Positions 1-18,719 of a DNA stretch of 64,000 nucleotides are shown in pieces. Within the stretch, counting starts at the first letter, position 1. Every line of letters starts with the position of its first letter. Under the pieces are notes generated by a model, which saw nothing but the letters and a program-made list of their open reading frames with translations, was not told the DNA's origin and did not search any database. The position numbers and the translations under genes were made by a program. This DNA is from a phage. The stretch is from the NCBI GenBank assembly GCA_021537435.1, contig GCA_021537435.1_3050.1, one strand, 5' to 3'.

Positions 1-81
1 ATCTTTATTCTTTTCAAGAATTGCTTGCTTCTGCTTAGTTGAACCAATAGATGCTATTTCGTTCAGAATTTTAAGAATCAT
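1..81 (-). CDS. 30: DNA ligase gp30, N-terminal fragment (gene runs off the window start)
   Basis: Reverse complement of 1..81 translates MILKILNEIASIGSTKQKQAILEKNKD, matching the recalled N-terminus of T4 DNA ligase; ATG at 79..81. Confidence 0.8.
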   Translation of the reverse strand, partial: MILKILNEIASIGSTKQKQAILEKNKD

Positions 82-347
82 TGTTCATCCTTTAGAGTTT
101 GGTTTACAGCTCTATTATAAATCAATTCATCATTAAGCTCAGTCAAAGACTTGTGGTACGTGGTTCTAACTTTATTTCCTTGCATCCAGTGCTTGACGTA
201 AATGAAACCTTGCTCTACACATTTTTTAAAAATTCGTTCGTCTTTTTGAGCTCGAAATTCTGGATTGCATCTAAAAAATTGATTTACGTGACCGTAATCA
301 CGTGTAGTATTACCTTCATTTTCATAAATAGTGTGAACGACAAACAT
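78..347 (-). CDS. hypothetical protein (30.1-like position)
   Basis: ORF-track 89 aa; start overlaps upstream stop; same strand as flanking early genes. Confidence 0.5.
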   Translation of the reverse strand: MFVVHTIYENEGNTTRDYGHVNQFFRCNPEFRAQKDERIFKKCVEQGFIYVKHWMQGNKVRTTYHKSLTELNDELIYNRAVNQTLKDEQ

Positions 348-1183
348 TAGAATGCTCCTTGGAAAATATTATCACCACTAGTAGGTCTATTATACAAATA
401 CTCTATGCCACCGGGTTTAATATAGTTCCATGTCTGAAACGGATGCGTCTGATATGGATGATATAGATTATAAGGATTAAATCCAGGAGTTCTCCAGGTA
501 GTGTTCCAAGGAAAAGAATCGTTTTTAATCATCTTCTCAATTACATCTTTTATAACTTTTTCACTATCAAAACTTTCTTTATTTTCCTTCGATGGAAAAA
601 GCTTATTCTCTACATCATTCCATGTATAAACTCGCTGCGCAGTTTTTGGAATATTGTCACGCTCTCCTCGAGCCATCCAATAAACAGGAACATTTAATAT
701 TTCACTCGCGTGATCGCAGTGGTGAGCGAGATCGTCAATATAACAAATTACGTTATATTTCTCTTTTGCCTTTTTGAACAACTCTTCTTTTGAAGAATCA
801 TGACCACACATCAATACTTCTGAGAAGGCACCAGGAAAAAGAGCATTCAAATTAAATTGACGATTTAGCAGAGCGTCAATAGAATCACCCAATGCTGTAA
901 CAGCTACAAAATTATAATCTTCTTTTAATTTGTTAATTACACACAGGGCATCTTTATACGGAGACAAGTAACGAATAAAATCTGAACGATTGTATTTTTC
1001 AATTAACTTGACACCAAGTTCTTCATCGCAATTAAAGAGCTTACCAGGAGAAATAAATTTTTCGTCCTGAATCATTTTTAAAATATGTTCCAACGGAAGA
1101 TTATATTTTTGGGCAAAATAAGGAAGACCTGATTGCCAGCTTAAACACACCCCGTCAATATCAGTCAAAATAGTAGGCTTCAT
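347..1183 (-). CDS. HAD-superfamily hydrolase-like protein (30.2-like position)
   Basis: 278 aa; N-terminal LTDIDGV resembles HAD motif I. Confidence 0.55.
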   Translation of the reverse strand: MKPTILTDIDGVCLSWQSGLPYFAQKYNLPLEHILKMIQDEKFISPGKLFNCDEELGVKLIEKYNRSDFIRYLSPYKDALCVINKLKEDYNFVAVTALGDSIDALLNRQFNLNALFPGAFSEVLMCGHDSSKEELFKKAKEKYNVICYIDDLAHHCDHASEILNVPVYWMARGERDNIPKTAQRVYTWNDVENKLFPSKENKESFDSEKVIKDVIEKMIKNDSFPWNTTWRTPGFNPYNLYHPYQTHPFQTWNYIKPGGIEYLYNRPTSGDNIFQGAF

Positions 1184-10489: not shown

Positions 10490-10992
10490 TTAAAAATATT
10501 TTTTAAAACTCATCATAACTTTATCATCAACATCATTATCAATCTGTGCTACAAGGTAAGATGACAGTTCTACTTCTTGTGGCGCGGATTGAACATTATC
10601 AGAATTAAGATATTCACGAATCCAAGGATACGGATGTTTAACCGGAGCATCAGTAATTGGGCATGGAAGACCGCACTGTTTCATACGAGATACAGTTAAG
10701 TAATCAATAAAGCTCCACATGCTATTTGTATTTAATCCAGGAACATCGCCATCTTTAAATAAATGAACTGCCCAGTCTTTTTCTTGACGGTTAACTTCCA
10801 TGAAAATATCAACTGCTTCTTGTTCACACTCTTGAGCAATTTTAACCCATTCATCGCCATCAGTACCAGATTGAAGTTGACGAATAATATATTGGGTGCC
10901 TTTAAGGTGAAGCTGTTCATCGCGTGCAATGAACTTCATAATCTTGGCATTACCTTCCATGATTTCCATGTTTTTATGGAAGTTGAAAGTAC
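10490..10992 (-). CDS. nrdB: ribonucleotide reductase small subunit, exon 2
   Basis: Joined to exon 1 gives ...FYVSFA-C-TFNFHKNMEIMEGNAK..., colinear with E. coli NrdB; total 388 aa. Confidence 0.85.
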
Positions 10993-11128
10993 CGTTATGT
11001 TCGATTGAGCTCGCTAATTCTCAATCCGTTCTCTTATGAACTGCTACATATTACTATGCAGACCAGACTATATCACAATCCCAGAGGGATTCTCCCCATT
11101 TCGAGTCGCTTGACCCTACGTCCGAAGA

Positions 11129-11938
11129 CTAGTCGTTGAACCTTGCTTTGCAATTGTCGCCGTGCCATCGTTTATATGTTGATGGTGATAAATCTTTCTT
11201 ATCACAATATGGACAATTCAATTGAATTCTATTTGGATTTAATTTACATCTGTCATTATGTTTTAGATAAAATCCAGGACCTTTACCAATGTGACCACAG
11301 AAATCACATGTGATTTCTTTTTGTGCAGGATGGGTCCCGTTCTTAACCATTTCTAATGTTTTTGCTGATGTTCTTTTCTTATGGTCTTCTGATAAGAAAT
11401 GATGTGAACCGTCATTTACCCGTTTTGATTGAGTTTCTGACTGCATTTTACCACCGCAAAATACATGAGTACCTTCTTTTATAGCTGCAATATTACGTTC
11501 TTTAACTTTTGCAATATGCTCAGCTTGTTGAAAATTATGTATACCTAATGCAACTCTATTTAAATTAGATTTACGCTGTATTTCACCATCTAAAAGATGA
11601 AATGTACCATTTTCTATCTTAGATTTAATAGAGGCAATATTTTTAGCTCGTACTTCAGGGATATTAAAAATCTGGATTTCTCTAGATTTTGCGGCTTTAG
11701 AAGCTAATTCAGAAATTTCTTCAGGAGAATATTTCATTCTAAGCTTTATAGCATGACAAGCCTGGTAATCTTTTTGAGCTAAATGTATATCATAATGTTC
11801 CTGTATAGAAAGGCACATCAAATTATCTAAATCATTATTTTCACGGTTACCGTCTTTATGATGGATTTCGTATGTTCTTCCATCAGAATCTTTAGGTATA
11901 GGTCCGTTAGCATCTATCCAAATTTTTCTATAGTTCAA
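11129..11938 (-). CDS. I-TevIII: intron-encoded HNH homing endonuclease, full length (TTG start in ORF track)
   Basis: 269 aa inside nrdB intron; EIHHKDGNRENNDLDNL HNH motif and C-terminal CxxC pairs. Confidence 0.8.
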   Translation of the reverse strand: MNYRKIWIDANGPIPKDSDGRTYEIHHKDGNRENNDLDNLMCLSIQEHYDIHLAQKDYQACHAIKLRMKYSPEEISELASKAAKSREIQIFNIPEVRAKNIASIKSKIENGTFHLLDGEIQRKSNLNRVALGIHNFQQAEHIAKVKERNIAAIKEGTHVFCGGKMQSETQSKRVNDGSHHFLSEDHKKRTSAKTLEMVKNGTHPAQKEITCDFCGHIGKGPGFYLKHNDRCKLNPNRIQLNCPYCDKKDLSPSTYKRWHGDNCKARFND

Positions 11939-11965
11939 TTGTGCATCCTCTTAAAAGTATAATCA

Positions 11966-11973
11966 TATTTATA
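11966..11973 (-). promoter_or_regulatory. late promoter TATAAATA inside nrdB intron, upstream of I-TevIII
   Basis: Minus-strand TATAAATA about 28 nt before the ORF start; TTTGCTTGC MotA-box-like element just upstream. Confidence 0.55.
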
Positions 11974-12082
11974 TTATACTAATTAAAGGTGCAAGCAAAA
12001 CCTTGGCTGCTAGTTTTCCATAAAGGACTTTCCAGCAATTAAAGGAGTTTTCGATAAACGTTACCGTTTAAAGGCGCATTTT

Positions 12083-12746
12083 ACGCAAAAGATACATAAA
12101 AACGAATAGCTTCCAATGCGTTGATTACATGGAGGCAAAGGTAAAGAGATTTCATCAGATCTCGTTTAGCTCTTTGCTCAACGTCTTTATCAGCTAGAAT
12201 TAGACCTTGGTCTTTATAATATTCAACCATGTCTTTAGCATTTTCCCATTCACGGGTTTTAACCAAGACATCATCATAATAGCGACCGATAGATTCAGCA
12301 CGTTTCATGATAGCTTCATCTAATACAATCTCATCAAATACCTTTGATGGATCAGTATAAAGATTTCGCATGATATGAGTATATGAACGACTGTGAATAG
12401 TTTCACTAAAAGTCCATGTAGCAACCCATGTATCAAGGCTTGGGTCTGAAATTAATGACATAAGTACAGCAGATGGCGCACGACCCTGAATGCTATCCAA
12501 AAGTGATTGATACTTCAGGTTATTAGTAAAAATATTCTGCTGATACTGAGGAAGTTTATTAAATTGTGCAGCATCCATCATCAAGTTTACTTCTTCAGGA
12601 CGCCAGAAAAATGATAATTGCTTTTCAGTCAAATCTTCAAAAACTTTATGGCGTTGAATATCATAACGCGCAATACCAAGACCTGAACCGAAGAACATAG
12701 GTTCTTTTAAAACATCAACTGGATTTGTATTAAAAACTGTAGACAT
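12083..12746 (-). CDS. nrdB: ribonucleotide reductase small subunit, exon 1
   Basis: Colinear with E. coli NrdB (LKEPMFFG ... HSRSYTHI ... AIRFYVSFA); intron splits the following Cys codon after its first U. Confidence 0.85.
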
Positions 12747-12780
12747 ATTATTCTCGCTTATTATAGGTTTAAATATTTAA

Positions 12781-13572
12781 TCACATATTATGTATAAGCA
12801 CTTCGGTCTGAAATGATGCACCCTTCTTTTGCTTCCTATACATGGTTTCAAAATATTCAATTTTGAAATTATTAGAAAGGGCCCAATCTTTTAAAATATA
12901 ATTATTAATATCGTCTGATAGATTATTAGTGATAATAAATTTAGACTTCGATTGTTTAATTTTGTCTAATAATTCTAATTCATCCTTTTCTTCCCAGCCT
13001 GAATATTTAAATTTAGTAGAAAGATACGGCGGGTCAATGAATAAATTTTTGTTTTCAAAATCCAAATCTCTGAATGATTTATTACTAAATGTAAATCGGT
13101 GCTGTCTATTTTTAAATTCAGAAAATTTATCCTGCTGAGACTTATTAAAAGAAGTTCTGGAATACTTGGCTCTATTGGCGAAAGCCGCGTTATAATTCCC
13201 ATTACTAGAAAATCGGATTAACGAACTGAATGAAAATAAATGTAGAACATAAAGATATAATCCGTTTTTGGTTTTATCGTATTCTTTTGACAGATTATAA
13301 AAAGGTGCTGAATCTTTGTCATTCAAATTAAAATCTTCAATAATTTTAACTATATCATTAATTGAAGATGATTTCATCTTTTTATACATGTCTATAAGAG
13401 GAGTATTAATATCATTACATATAACATCTCTCTGACAATTCATAGAAAATCCAAGACCACCACAAAAAGCATCCAAAACAGGCTTATCGTCAAAGCGGTT
13501 TGAAAATTGTCTAATAAATGGCATATACTTATGTTTTGCACCTGGATATGTTATGGCAGGTAGGTCTTTCAT
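12781..13572 (-). CDS. Dam-family (D12 class) DNA N6-adenine methyltransferase, divergent
   Basis: 263 aa; motif I FCGGLG, motif IV DPPY, N-terminal YPGAK; by-eye alignment with recalled T4 and E. coli Dam. Confidence 0.8.
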   Translation of the reverse strand: MKDLPAITYPGAKHKYMPFIRQFSNRFDDKPVLDAFCGGLGFSMNCQRDVICNDINTPLIDMYKKMKSSSINDIVKIIEDFNLNDKDSAPFYNLSKEYDKTKNGLYLYVLHLFSFSSLIRFSSNGNYNAAFANRAKYSRTSFNKSQQDKFSEFKNRQHRFTFSNKSFRDLDFENKNLFIDPPYLSTKFKYSGWEEKDELELLDKIKQSKSKFIITNNLSDDINNYILKDWALSNNFKIEYFETMYRKQKKGASFQTEVLIHNM

Positions 13573-16749: not shown

Positions 16750-17765
16750 CATTATGTTCAGATAAGGTCGTTAATCTTACCCCGGAATTATATCCAGCTG
16801 CATGTCACCATGCAGATCAGACTATATCTCCAACTTGTTAAAGCAAGTTGTCTATCGTTTCGAGTCACTTGACCCTACTCCCCAAAGGGATAGTCGTTAG
16901 GCATTTATGTAGAACCAATTCCATTTATCAGATTTTACACGATAAGTAACTAATCCAGACGAAATTTTAAAATGTCTAGCTGCATCTGCTGCACAATCAA
17001 AAATAACCCCATCACATGAAATCTTTTTAATATTACTAGGCTTTTTACCTTTCATCTTTTCTGATATTTTAGATTTAGTTATGTCTGAATGCTTATGATT
17101 AAAGAATGAATTATTTTCACCTGAACGATTTCTGCATTTACTACAAGTATAAGCAGAAGTTTGTATGCGAACACCGCACTTACAAAACTTATGGGTTTCT
17201 GGATTCCAACGCCCGTTTTTACTTCCGGGTTTACTGTAAAGAGCTTTCCGACCATCAGGTCCAAGTTTAAGCATCTTAGCTTTAACAGTTTTAGAACGTT
17301 TCTTAATAATTTCTTCTTTTAATGGATGCGTAGAACATGTATCACCAAACGTTGCATCAGCAATATTGTATCCATTAATTTTAGAATTAAGCTCTTTAAT
17401 CCAAAAATTTTCTCGTTCAATAATCAAATCTTTCTCATATGGAATTTCTTCCAAAATAGAACATTCAAACACATTACCATGTTTGTTAAAAGACCTCTGA
17501 AGCTTTATAGAAGAATGGCATCCTTTTTCTAAATCTTTAAAATGCCTCTTCCATCTCTTTTCAAAATCTTTAGCACTTCCTACATATACTTTATTGTTTA
17601 AAGTATTTTTAATCTGATAAATTCCGCTTTTCATAAATACCTCTTTAAATATAGAAGTATTTATTAAAGGGCAGTCCTACAATTTAGCACGGGATTGTCT
17701 ACTAGAGAGGTTCCCCGTTTAGATAGATTACAAGTATAAGTCACCTTATACTCAGGCCTCAATTA
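16750..17765 (-). mobile_element. group I self-splicing intron in td (1016 nt)
   Basis: 5' end UAAUUGAGGCCUGAGUAUAAGGUG and 3' end ...CUGAACAUAAUG match the recalled T4 td intron. Confidence 0.9.
16897..17634 (-). CDS. I-TevI: intron-encoded GIY-YIG homing endonuclease
   Basis: 245 aa, MKSGIYQIKNTLNNKVYVGSAKDFEKRWKRH..., matches recalled T4 I-TevI. Confidence 0.9.
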   Translation of the reverse strand: MKSGIYQIKNTLNNKVYVGSAKDFEKRWKRHFKDLEKGCHSSIKLQRSFNKHGNVFECSILEEIPYEKDLIIERENFWIKELNSKINGYNIADATFGDTCSTHPLKEEIIKKRSKTVKAKMLKLGPDGRKALYSKPGSKNGRWNPETHKFCKCGVRIQTSAYTCSKCRNRSGENNSFFNHKHSDITKSKISEKMKGKKPSNIKKISCDGVIFDCAADAARHFKISSGLVTYRVKSDKWNWFYINA

Positions 17766-18359: not shown

Positions 18360-18719
18360 TCAATACGGTTTAGCATCAAATTTTCTCTCAATTTCAGGCG
18401 TGAAATATAATTCTTTACCGCGTTTGGAAAAGCGACCAATAATATGATAATTATTCTCATCAAACGTGATATTGCCGATATCCATAGCTTTCAACCAAAT
18501 ATCGATATTTCTATCCAACTTTATGTCAAAATTCCAATACGGAGAACTATTACCGAAAATACTGCAAGCGGATTCAGTAAAACAACTACTATAAATCTTG
18601 TCTTTAGGAACTACTAATTGATAGACGCCTTTAATAAACTGAGGACCCTGCCATTTTGGTTGTTTCGCGTCTTTTTCTAATAGAATAGGGTAATAATTAA
18701 AATTCATATTTTCCGCCAC
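18360..18719 (-). CDS. hypothetical protein inserted between frd and td
   Basis: ORF-track 119 aa; tightly packed between frd stop and td start. Confidence 0.5.
   Translation of the reverse strand: MAENMNFNYYPILLEKDAKQPKWQGPQFIKGVYQLVVPKDKIYSSCFTESACSIFGNSSPYWNFDIKLDRNIDIWLKAMDIGNITFDENNYHIIGRFSKRGKELYFTPEIERKFDAKPY

Follow-up and report, generated by a model that had tools for sequence, protein, structure and literature searches.

An RB3-type full-length nrdB intron with an uninterrupted I-TevIII reading frame in a T-even phage genome

The nrdB gene in the stretch of phage DNA considered in this study (64,000 nt, hereafter the window) is interrupted by an RB3-type full-length nrdB intron, of a kind known before and found in many sequenced phages. 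The interruption is almost certainly a self-splicing group I intron (IA2-type) of the T-even phages, with an intact I-TevIII gene placed in L6a, and nothing substantive counts against this reading. The splice junctions, the restoration of the reading frame, the intact ORF with its key residues, the covarying fold, the promoter motifs and the hairpin upstream of the ORF were all computed directly, and the coordinates of these features are collected in Table 1.

The value of the case as a discovery is small. The element is a mobile intron of textbook standing, described for the first time in 1991, with a biochemical characterisation that followed in 2007. The small extras are the mosaic exons, a methyltransferase cassette nearby that is rare, and the combination of a full-length ORF with a P5 hairpin of the T4 type. 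There is also a consequence for annotation: nrdB in the window should be given as a single joined CDS whose intron encodes I-TevIII, where many public records have two NrdB fragments and a hypothetical protein over the same stretch.

Table 1. Features of the nrdB intron and its surroundings, in window coordinates.
Feature	Coordinates	Strand	Details
nrdB exon 1	12746..12083	minus	664 nt; final base is the first U of Cys codon UGU; Pfam Ribonuc_red_sm 3.2e-20
Group I intron	12082..10993	minus	1090 nt; 5' end AAAAUGCGCC..., 3' terminal G at 10993
nrdB exon 2	10992..10490	minus	503 nt including stop; begins GU ACU UUC; Ribonuc_red_sm 3.9e-11
P1	12086..12074	minus	exon GCGU (12086..12083) pairs with guide GCGC (intron 6-9, 12077..12074)
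5' core half	12070..11995	minus	P2 (GUAA loop), P3 5' strand, P4, P5, P6/P6a 5' strands; intron 13-88
3' core half	11151..11003	minus	P6a', P6', P7, P7.1 (UUCG loop), P7.2, P3', P8, P7', P9-P9.2; intron 932-1080
I-TevIII ORF	11938..11129	minus	269 aa, TTG start, uninterrupted
T4 late-promoter consensus TATAAATA	11973..11966	minus	exact; intron 110-117; 27 nt before TTG
Middle-promoter-like element	12000..11973	minus	TGCTT 11997..11993, 12-nt spacer, TATAAT 11978..11973
Hairpin in L6a	11992..11943	minus	CCUUU pairs with Shine-Dalgarno AAGAGG (SD 11952..11946)
Homing-site copy	12000..11981	minus	15/20 positions; intron 83-102; putative autorepression operator
Left GAAGA(A/C)CATA-repeat copy GAAGAACATA	11880..11871	minus	imperfect direct repeat; site of the T4 491-nt deletion
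Right GAAGA(A/C)CATA-repeat copy GAAGACCATA	11389..11380	minus	other end of the T4 491-nt deletion
ACAATTG direct repeat	left 11942..11936, right 11157..11151	minus	
td intron with I-TevI	17765..16750	minus	also in the window

Splice junctions and ribozyme core

The original prediction placed an nrdB intron of about 1090 nt at 10993-12082, and these coordinates proved exact to the base; that nrdB lies on the minus strand is a detail it did not give. Exon 1 ends in ...TTT GCG T, the intron begins with AAAATGCGCC and ends in ...CATAACG, and exon 2 begins with GT ACT TTC AAC. The two exons are in frame across the removed intron and yield a spliced NrdB of 388 aa, identical to T4 NrdB at 381 of the 388 positions, in which the junction reads FYVSFA-C-TFNF. 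This product confirms the predicted splitting of the Cys codon after FYVSFA and the restoration of UGU. Two of the marks by which group I introns are recognised are present: excision leaves an uninterrupted, conserved NrdB frame, and the last nucleotide of the intron is a guanosine (...CAUAACG).

Several public records give two NrdB CDSs (nrdB_1 and nrdB_2) and a 'hypothetical protein' over this stretch, as though the ORF were an unspliced free-standing endonuclease cassette that splits nrdB into two polypeptides. RNR genes split by endonucleases do exist in T4-like phages, as in e11/2, where mobE lies within nrdA. The probability that nrdB is so divided in the window is nevertheless close to nil. 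When exon 1 is read on into the intron, an in-frame stop follows directly after ...FYVSFA, and neither a start codon nor a ribosome-binding site was found at the true beginning of exon 2. The junction falls within a codon, removal of the intervening DNA gives a contiguous, conserved NrdB, and the ORF is flanked by a complete, covarying group I core. A group I intron is also what the T4 record and reviews (PMC1865063, PMC2790892) speak of, and in the RB3 genome record nrdB is joined across the insert.

The core supports the reading as a spliced group I intron in its own right. All 89 of the pairs assigned by hand to P1-P9.2 are canonical in the window. In an alignment of six copies, 99.8% of the cells are paired and eight pairs show compensatory changes (three pairs in P2, two in P9.2, the remainder in P5, P7.2 and P9); none of 500 shuffles matched this, and controls in which the pairing was slid were 36-44% paired, with no compensatory pairs. 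The helices P1, P3, P4, P6, P7, P7.1 and P9.1 have no covariation support, because they are invariant among the aligned nrdB copies. The core helices P3-P9 stand in canonical order, with the P3/P7 pseudoknot, and P9 is capped by a GUAA loop and followed by P9.1 and P9.2. All six aligned copies have P1, in which U(-1) and G6 form the U.G wobble of the 5' splice site.

P5 in the window has 3 bp, one fewer than in the RB3-type copies, and is identical to P5 of T4; the 66 nt around it are 100% T4-type. A sequencing error and a damaging mutation were both considered as the source of the 1-nt 'deletion' in P5 and both were rejected, because this is the T4 state, common to 26 records.

The Rfam group I model overlooks ORF-bearing phage introns at its curated threshold, and the window is a case in point: at the gathering score, Rfam returned no match over the whole window, missing both the nrdB and the td intron. 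The nrdB intron is missed because an ORF block of 785 nt in L6a splits the core. In E-value mode over the intron, RF00028 finds the 3' core only, with 33.9 bits (cut-off 50, E 1.3e-6), and this sub-threshold match forces the 5' half of the intron into the end of the ORF. The natural ORF-less copies of PD112 and DCP80 reach 68.6 and 74.1 bits, respectively (model 1-253/253, same cut-off), and over the stretches that PD112 retains its identity to the window intron is 98.7%. The Rfam search by which the group I assignment was to be checked was negative on the window at the curated threshold and positive on the ORF-less copies, the gathering score being an operational threshold for detection and no biological defining feature. 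The assignment itself stands, on the scores of the ORF-less copies together with the canonical and compensatory pairs described above. Other weak Rfam matches within the intron (rseX, snoRNAs, a miRNA; E 1.5-8.7) were put down to chance.

The I-TevIII reading frame and the elements upstream of it

An intact 269-aa HNH endonuclease with zinc-finger-like CxxC pairs had been predicted within the intron, and the ORF bears this out. It matches Pfam HNH_3 (6e-13, residues 4-48) and, along its entire length, PHROG 12324 'intron-like DNA endonuclease' (1.9e-193, 1-269/269). The HNH catalytic residues H26, H27, N39 and H48 are all present, as are two zinc fingers of the form CX2CX12-13HX3C, C211/C214/H227/C231 (CDFCGHIGKGPGFYLKHNDRC, residues 211-231) and C242/C245/H259/C263 (CPYCDKKDLSPSTYKRWHGDNC, residues 242-263). 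Mutation of the HNH residues to alanine, or of the zinc ligands, abolishes cleavage or binding by I-TevIII (PMC1865063). A Pfam match to FlgM at residues 74-114 (26.2 bits, cut-off 25) is probably no more than spurious resemblance to the helical repeat region; no NCBIfam model matches the ORF, FlgM appearing there only below threshold. A sequence search of the PDB with the ORF gave no meaningful relative (best E 0.29).

The alignment with RB3 and T4 proposed as a check puts the ORF one residue from RB3 I-TevIII (268/269 identical), the T4 copy being deleted; the identity to e11/2 is complete (269/269). The single difference from RB3 is Tyr23, where the biochemically tested RB3 protein has Asp23. 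The RB3 residue is the outlier, since e11/2, HY03 and S16 have Tyr23. The start codon of the ORF is TTG and not ATG, a second detail absent from the original prediction; RB3, e11/2, HY03 and S16 have the same start. Selection on the ORF is supported by the comparison with the S16 copy, in which 55 codons differ synonymously and 28 non-synonymously. At its 3' end the ORF runs into P6a', P6' and the 5' strand of P7, which it overlaps with its final 11 codons and stop.

A late promoter and a MotA-box-like motif were predicted within the intron upstream of the ORF. Both motifs are there, that for MotA as the TGCTT core only. The consensus for MotA-dependent middle promoters is (a/t)(a/t)(a/t)TGCTT(t/c)A, followed about 12 bp downstream by a -10 element of the form TAnnnT. 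The sequence TTTTGCTTGC (intron 83-92) fits this consensus at the A/T positions and TGCTT but not at the last two positions; the TGCTT core lies at intron 86-90 and TATAAT at intron 105-110. In fPS-2 the same stretch is annotated as a predicted middle promoter, and in T4 middle and late promoters at this location have been mapped by primer extension (reviewed in PMC2988022). A generic scan for sigma-70 promoters and terminators over 10900-12900 found nothing above shuffle expectation, the sigma-70 scan being uninformative for T4 middle and late promoters.

The hairpin over the ribosome-binding site (dG -14.9 kcal/mol, z -3.2), like the promoter motifs and the homing-site copy, fits what has been published on how intron endonucleases are regulated in T4 (PMC2988022). 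The middle-promoter-like element overlaps the operator-like copy of the homing site, whose match at 15 of 20 positions was reached by 3 of 300 shuffles. This arrangement of promoters, Shine-Dalgarno hairpin and operator-like site upstream of the ORF has been published for T4 and RB3.

The intron of T4 persists with a dead ORF and is mobilised in trans by MobE (PMC2790892), and one may ask whether the window intron is likewise a stagnant relic, its enzyme or expression dead and the intron kept by vertical descent or by trans-mobilisation by a neighbouring endonuclease. Deleted forms make up about a third of the intron-bearing records, and Tyr23 departs from the RB3 protein whose activity was tested. 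I consider this very unlikely. The ORF is uninterrupted and keeps all residues defined by mutation, its differences from relatives are mostly synonymous, and at residue 23 it is RB3 that is exceptional. The regulatory motifs are intact as well, and no mobE stands beside nrdB in the window to act in trans.

For an intact element of the RB3 type, the course of events may be outlined from homology, for splicing, promoter use, cleavage and mobility alike. PMC1865063 and PMC2790892 count the nrdB introns of T4 and RB3 as self-splicing T-even group I introns, and the 98-99% identity to them suggests that the window intron splices too. The pre-mRNA would fold into the P1-P9.2 core, its 5' splice site marked by the U.G pair and its 3' end by the terminal G, and guanosine-initiated self-excision would join ...UUUGCGU (12083) to GUACUUUC (10992). 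Because excision restores the Cys codon, normal NrdB would be made. I-TevIII would be expressed separately, from the putative MotA-type middle promoter and the TATAAATA late promoter of the intron. In read-through transcripts from upstream of nrdB, the hairpin would mask the ORF's ribosome-binding site and so keep ribosomes away from the ribozyme core that the 3' end of the ORF overlaps. If I-TevIII behaves as the RB3 enzyme does (PMC1865063), then in a mixed infection its dimer would bind intronless nrdB via the two zinc fingers. Cleavage of the intronless allele, such as that of NR1 or T6, is predicted at -14/-16, leaving 2-nt 3' overhangs, or about 12096-12098 in the window (distance taken from PMC1865063), and repair off the intron-bearing genome would copy the intron into the cleaved nrdB.

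Distribution of the intron and its mosaic surroundings

The RB3 nrdB intron with its I-TevIII gene is said to have been first described by Eddy and Gold in 1991 (GenBank X59078). Over its full 1090 nt the window intron has 99.4-99.5% identity to the group I intron of RB3 nrdB, which dismisses a match by chance; the RB3 matches include X59078 and KM606994, both annotated with I-TevIII and a joined nrdB CDS. The length of 1090 nt was rejected as proof of identity with the published RB3 sequence. The intron in the RB3 genome has 1091 nt, X59078 has only 1090 because a C in P8 is missing there, and the window intron arrives at 1090 through another 1-nt difference.

The intron is present in 127 phage records, at least 85 of them full-length; nrdB alleles as such, intron-bearing or intronless, came to about 620. 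The copies surveyed include introns that are intact, introns with a damaged ORF and introns without one, and so cover all three states in the life cycle of a homing intron. A short direct repeat marks the place of each deletion surveyed. The ORF-less mini-introns of PD112 and DCP80, for example, are exact deletions between the two copies of ACAATTG. At the site of the T4 deletion, the Tyr23 codon of the window creates a CATA microhomology. Because it joins this codon to a T4-type P5 and an intact ORF, the window intron may be, of the copies compared, the intact one that stands nearest to the progenitor from which the deleted T4 intron came.

Between nrdA and nrdB, where mobE normally sits, the window has a rare methyltransferase cassette. 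The backbone that carries it has its closest relatives in NR1 (99.7%) and T4_ev240 (98.4%, both over the cassette), and both phages have intronless nrdB and td. The nrdB exons alternate between NR1-like, T4-like and donor-like blocks, and over the 13-kb neighbourhood the best record has 96.2-96.4% identity at 90-91% coverage.

Such a pattern might arise from a chimeric assembly of two co-occurring phages, which would account for a T4-type P5 beside an RB3-type ORF and P9 (the intron outside the 66 nt at P5 is closest to RB3 and e11/2), for the switches between exon blocks and for the want of a closer record over 13 kb. I regard this as extremely unlikely, given that T4-type P5 and full-length ORF occur together in the independent genomes of pSe_SNUABM_01, SmallBear_ER8 and vB_ECOLIGBLB0003, that reading frames are intact across all switch points, and that homing with co-conversion yields mosaicism around homing endonuclease genes in T-even phages (PMC2790892).

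Taking the window as a natural genome, one can look for traces of the intron's arrival. Donor-type polymorphisms in nrdB are limited to about 13 nt upstream and about 8 nt downstream of the intron; the upstream tract covers roughly the distance between the I-TevIII cut site and the point of insertion, and just before it, at CDS 609-633, nrdB has the intronless sequence type. At CDS 651-672 the donor-type block was judged against five references, with chance mosaicism as the alternative. I would suggest tentatively, and with more doubt than belief, that the window records a fairly recent natural homing event into the backbone with the methyltransferase cassette. If that is true, the event left an unusually short co-conversion tract.

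Comparison with known systems

The closest known system is the nrdB intron of RB3 with I-TevIII, studied biochemically by Robbins et al. (2007, PMC1865063), who give the mobility of the intron and the cleavage geometry of the enzyme. The host gene, insertion point, architecture, promoters, hairpin and core are all shared, as are the 269-aa ORF and its TTG start. In P5 the window has CCUUUAU-GGA where RB3 has CCUUUAUAGGA, one nucleotide fewer, and its intron therefore has 1090 nt to the 1091 nt of the RB3 genome. The remaining differences are four synonymous changes in the ORF besides Tyr23, one change from G.U to A-U in P9.2 and, outside the intron, the methyltransferase gene in the place of mobE.

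With T4 the window shares the insertion site, the 3' core and an identical 5' stretch of 210 nt, which takes in P1-P6a, the promoters and codons 1-22. The T4 intron has 598 nt and is without 491 nt from codon 23 on, between the GAAGA(A/C)CATA repeats; because the deletion shifts the frame, its ORF stops after 22 aa. It differs further by a compensatory change from A-U to G-C in P9 and by one nucleotide fewer near the 3' end. The statement in the original prediction that I-TevIII is truncated in T4 and full-length in RB3 agrees with the alignment, with the note in the T4 record ('defective ... deletion in proximal half') and with the literature (PMC1865063, PMC2988022). Mobility of the T4 intron relies on MobE (PMC2790892), and the window is without mobE.

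The td intron in the window has the same subgroup architecture, with an ORF looped out of P6a and the P7.1/P7.2 and P9.1/P9.2 extensions, and likewise a late promoter and a hairpin over the ribosome-binding site (PMC2988022). The 3' part of the nrdB intron does parallel that of td, as had been noticed: the last 170 nt or so are 77% identical, and the J6/7-P7, P7.2, P7' and P9 blocks are identical. P3, P7.1 and P8 of td differ in sequence and still pair, as read by eye and with no formal count. The td intron differs in its host gene and its 5' half, and its endonuclease, I-TevI, is unrelated, a GIY-YIG monomer that cuts at -23/-25. I-HmuI, from the SPO1 DNA polymerase intron, resembles I-TevIII in being an HNH enzyme encoded by an intron and in having a DNA-binding region that is extended and modular (PMC1865063); it nicks one strand and acts also on intron-containing DNA, whereas I-TevIII is a dimer that makes a double-strand break (PMC1865063).

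Splice junctions and group I core

The ORF list contains two Ribonuc_red_sm fragments (12746..12081 and 10969..10490, minus strand) with a 269-aa ORF between them. The original prediction placed a group I intron here, within a Cys codon of nrdB, and its coordinates and junctions are exact, since reading the sequence and splicing it in silico joins exons of 664 and 503 nt in frame. The resulting 388-aa NrdB reads ...FYVSFA-C-TFNF... and is identical to T4 NrdB at 381 of 388 residues. Positions called "intron" are counted from the 5' end of the intron.

Features of the nrdB and td loci (window coordinates unless stated otherwise)
Feature	Position	Strand	Remarks
nrdB exon 1	12746..12083	-	664 nt, 3' end ...UUU GCG U (sequence reading and in silico splicing)
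nrdB intron	12082..10993	-	1090 nt, 5' AAAAUGCGCC..., 3' ...CAUAACG
nrdB exon 2	from 10992	-	503 nt, 5' GU ACU UUC
I-TevIII ORF	11938..11129	-	269 aa, TTG start 7 nt after AAGAGGA
ACAATTG copies	11942..11936 and 11157..11151	-	flank I-TevIII ORF; intron 141-147 and 926-932
MotA-like element	intron 86-110		TGCTT 86-90, 12-nt spacer, TATAAT 105-110
Late promoter motif	intron 110-117		TATAAATA
Shine-Dalgarno	intron 131-137		AAGAGGA
TTG start	intron 145		
ORF-less intron, PD112	301-604 of L007 (PD112)		
ORF-less intron, DCP80	301-609 of L008 (DCP80)		
Methyltransferase gene	12781..13572	-	D12-class N6-adenine DNA methyltransferase, 263 aa, Pfam 5.5e-24, PHROG 56
td intron	17765..16750	-	1016 nt
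I-TevI ORF	17634..16897	-	intact, 245 aa, within td intron
nrdB CDS segment	CDS 1-150		NR1/RB3-like
nrdB CDS segment	CDS ~516-591		T4-type only, with 12-nt length difference
nrdB CDS segment	CDS 609-633		like intronless alleles
nrdB CDS segments	CDS 651-663, 669-672		directly flank intron, like intron-bearing alleles
nrdB CDS segment	rest of exon 2		mostly NR1-like

A covariance-model search, proposed as a check, came out negative on the window and positive on ORF-less copies of the intron. At the curated threshold Rfam has no match anywhere in the window, and the td intron likewise goes unmatched at the gathering threshold. In E-value mode the Rfam group I model (RF00028) finds only the 3' core of the nrdB intron, which stays below the cut-off of 50 with 33.9 bits (E 1.3e-6). 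The intron is missed at threshold because a 785-nt ORF block in loop L6a splits the two halves of the core. Natural ORF-less versions of about 304 nt, from PD112 (98.7% identical) and DCP80 (91%), match the whole model at 68.6 and 74.1 bits.

The group I assignment is borne out by these relatives, by a wholly canonical core and by covariation. Helices were assigned by hand (P1, P2, P3, P4, P5, P6, P6a, P7, P7.1, P7.2, P8, P9, P9.1 and P9.2), and 89 of 89 core pairs are canonical in the window. In a core-only alignment of six sequences (the window, PD112, DCP80, S16 (89% identical), HY03 (96%) and T4), the same six from which the structure was derived, 99.8% of cells are paired, with compensatory double changes in eight pairs (three in P2, one each in P5, P7.2 and P9, and two in P9.2). 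None of 500 shuffles reached this level of pairing and compensation, and a control with slid partners gave 36-44% paired and no compensatory pairs. P1, P3, P4, P6, P7, P7.1 and P9.1 are invariant among the nrdB copies and draw no covariation support from the alignment. Read against the td intron, P3, P7.1 and P8 have changed in sequence and kept their pairing. The intron also has the terminal G and, at its 5' splice site, the U.G pair.

The parallel drawn with the 3' part of the td intron also stands: over the last ~170 nt the two introns share 77% identity, including long stretches without a mismatch in J6/7-P7, P7.2, P7' and P9. Between frd and td, which overlap in T4, lies a 119-aa ORF (18360..18719, minus strand) found in 363 records, mostly annotated as hypothetical and in one as a putative homing endonuclease.

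The I-TevIII reading frame and its deletions

The ORF is intact, as predicted. It matches PHROG 12324 ('intron-like DNA endonuclease') over residues 1-269 of 269 (1.9e-193) and Pfam HNH_3 (6e-13), and its TTG start is common to RB3, e11/2, HY03 and S16. The HNH residues H26, H27, N39 and H48 are all kept, as are both CX2CX12-13HX3C fingers (C211/C214/H227/C231 and C242/C245/H259/C263); alanine substitution of these residues abolishes cleavage or DNA binding (PMC1865063). The e11/2 protein has the same sequence, and that of RB3 differs at residue 23 alone, Tyr in the window and Asp in RB3. Because HY03 and S16 also have Tyr, RB3 is the outlier. Codon differences from the 89%-identical S16 copy (55 synonymous, 28 non-synonymous) are consistent with purifying selection. 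At its 3' end, the ORF (final 11 codons and stop) runs into P6a', P6' and the 5' strand of P7. Residues ~70-205 form repeated modules of ~24 residues ending G(T/S/I)H-x-F (...NGTFH, LGIHNF, EGTHVF, DGSHHF, NGTHPA); a borderline Pfam FlgM match to this region (26.2 bits, cut-off 25) is probably spurious.

Truncation of I-TevIII in T4 and its full length in RB3, as stated in the original prediction, are confirmed. T4 has the same intron at 598 nt, lacking 491 nt in alignment to the window from a gap that starts in ORF codon 23, and its GenBank record labels its own I-TevIII 'defective ... deletion in proximal half'. A longer intron with active endonuclease in RB3 is credited to Eddy and Gold (1991) in a passage of PMC2993671, and Robbins et al. 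(2007) demonstrated that the RB3 intron is mobile and that I-TevIII, which has two zinc fingers, is an HNH enzyme. In the PHROG search, residues 173-269 are matched by the 97-aa T4 remnant family. The deletion endpoints lie in an imperfect repeat, GAAGAACATA (intron 203-212) and GAAGACCATA (694-703), at which the Tyr23 codon of the window gives a 4-nt CATA microhomology and RB3 only CA. The deletion takes out the HNH motif and most of the repeat modules.

The ORF-less mini-introns correspond to an exact deletion between the two ACAATTG copies. They have kept the promoter, the hairpin and the Shine-Dalgarno region, a relic with no remaining use that argues for loss of the ORF and against an ancestral state without it. 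The same junction occurs in one Tequatrovirus and one Gaprivervirus. Among the copies surveyed, the T4-type deletion included, intact, damaged and ORF-less states are all seen.

Putative expression signals ahead of the ORF

Of the two promoters predicted inside the intron, the late motif is exact. The MotA box is a core match only, the last two positions of the consensus being unmatched; in phage fPS-2 the annotation places a predicted middle promoter on the same stretch. A hairpin spanning intron 90-141 (dG -14.9 kcal/mol, shuffle z-score -3.2, equalled by none of 200 shuffles) pairs CCUUU with AAGAGG of the ribosome-binding site and is kept in all six aligned sequences. Transcripts from either internal promoter would lack its 5' arm. 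Of the 20 positions of the homing site (-8 to +12), 15 agree with intron 83-102, a level reached by 3 of 300 shuffles, and this segment is a putative autorepression operator, such as was noted in a review by Edgell et al. All these features belong to biology already described. In T4, middle and late promoters of the three intron endonucleases were mapped by primer extension, a structure sequestering the ribosome-binding site restricts translation to late transcripts, and operator-like sites overlap the promoters (PMC2988022).

Genomic setting and relation to the RB3 and T4 introns

T4 and RB3 carry mobE between nrdA and nrdB (plus nrdB.1 in T4), whereas the window has the methyltransferase gene in its place. 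This cassette occurs in only 7 of 50,697 phage records. The closest, NR1 (99.7%) and T4_ev240 (98.4%), are intronless in both nrdB and td, and vB_Eco_BGP has an 81%-identical copy adjoining an intron-bearing nrdB. Judged against five references (NR1, T4_ev240, RB3, e11/2 and T4), the nrdB exons are a mosaic, and polymorphisms of the donor type are confined to ~13 nt on the upstream side of the intron and ~8 nt on the downstream side. On only five references, this pattern is no more than a hint that the intron may have homed into an NR1-like backbone, leaving a very short co-conversion tract. The spliced junction has its best database match in intronless T6, where identity is no higher than 95.6%.

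The 1090-nt intron is matched in 127 phage records, 85 of which cover at least 80% of it in one piece. Identity is 99.5% to e11/2 and others and 99.4% to RB3, in the genome (KM606994) and the original entry (X59078) alike. In the RB3 record the nrdB CDS is joined over the insert, within which I-TevIII is annotated; many GenBank phage records give two NrdB CDSs (nrdB_1/nrdB_2) and a 'hypothetical protein' instead of one joined CDS whose intron encodes an endonuclease.

The window intron is 1090 nt and that of the RB3 genome 1091 nt because P5 in the window is of the T4 type (UCC/GGA, 3 bp), whereas in RB3-type copies it is extended by a fourth pair, U-A (G-C in DCP80, A-U in HY03). Around P5, a 66-nt stretch is shared at 100% identity with T4 and 25 further records, among them phages with a full-length ORF, e.g., pSe_SNUABM_01. 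X59078, from 1991, reaches 1090 nt only through one C missing from the P8 stem, GAAT-CCTCTGGGATT (alignment column 1026), which is present in KM606994 and all other copies. Its absence is probably an old sequencing error, so the RB3 intron would be 1091 nt, not 1090. In P9.2, a G-to-A change relative to RB3 turns a G.U pair into A-U.

Splicing, promoter use, cleavage and homing would be expected of the window intron from its near-identity to characterised copies, and its value lies mainly in annotation. The original prediction was correct in both observation and interpretation: the element is the RB3-type nrdB intron with I-TevIII, already known and common in sequenced T-even phages.
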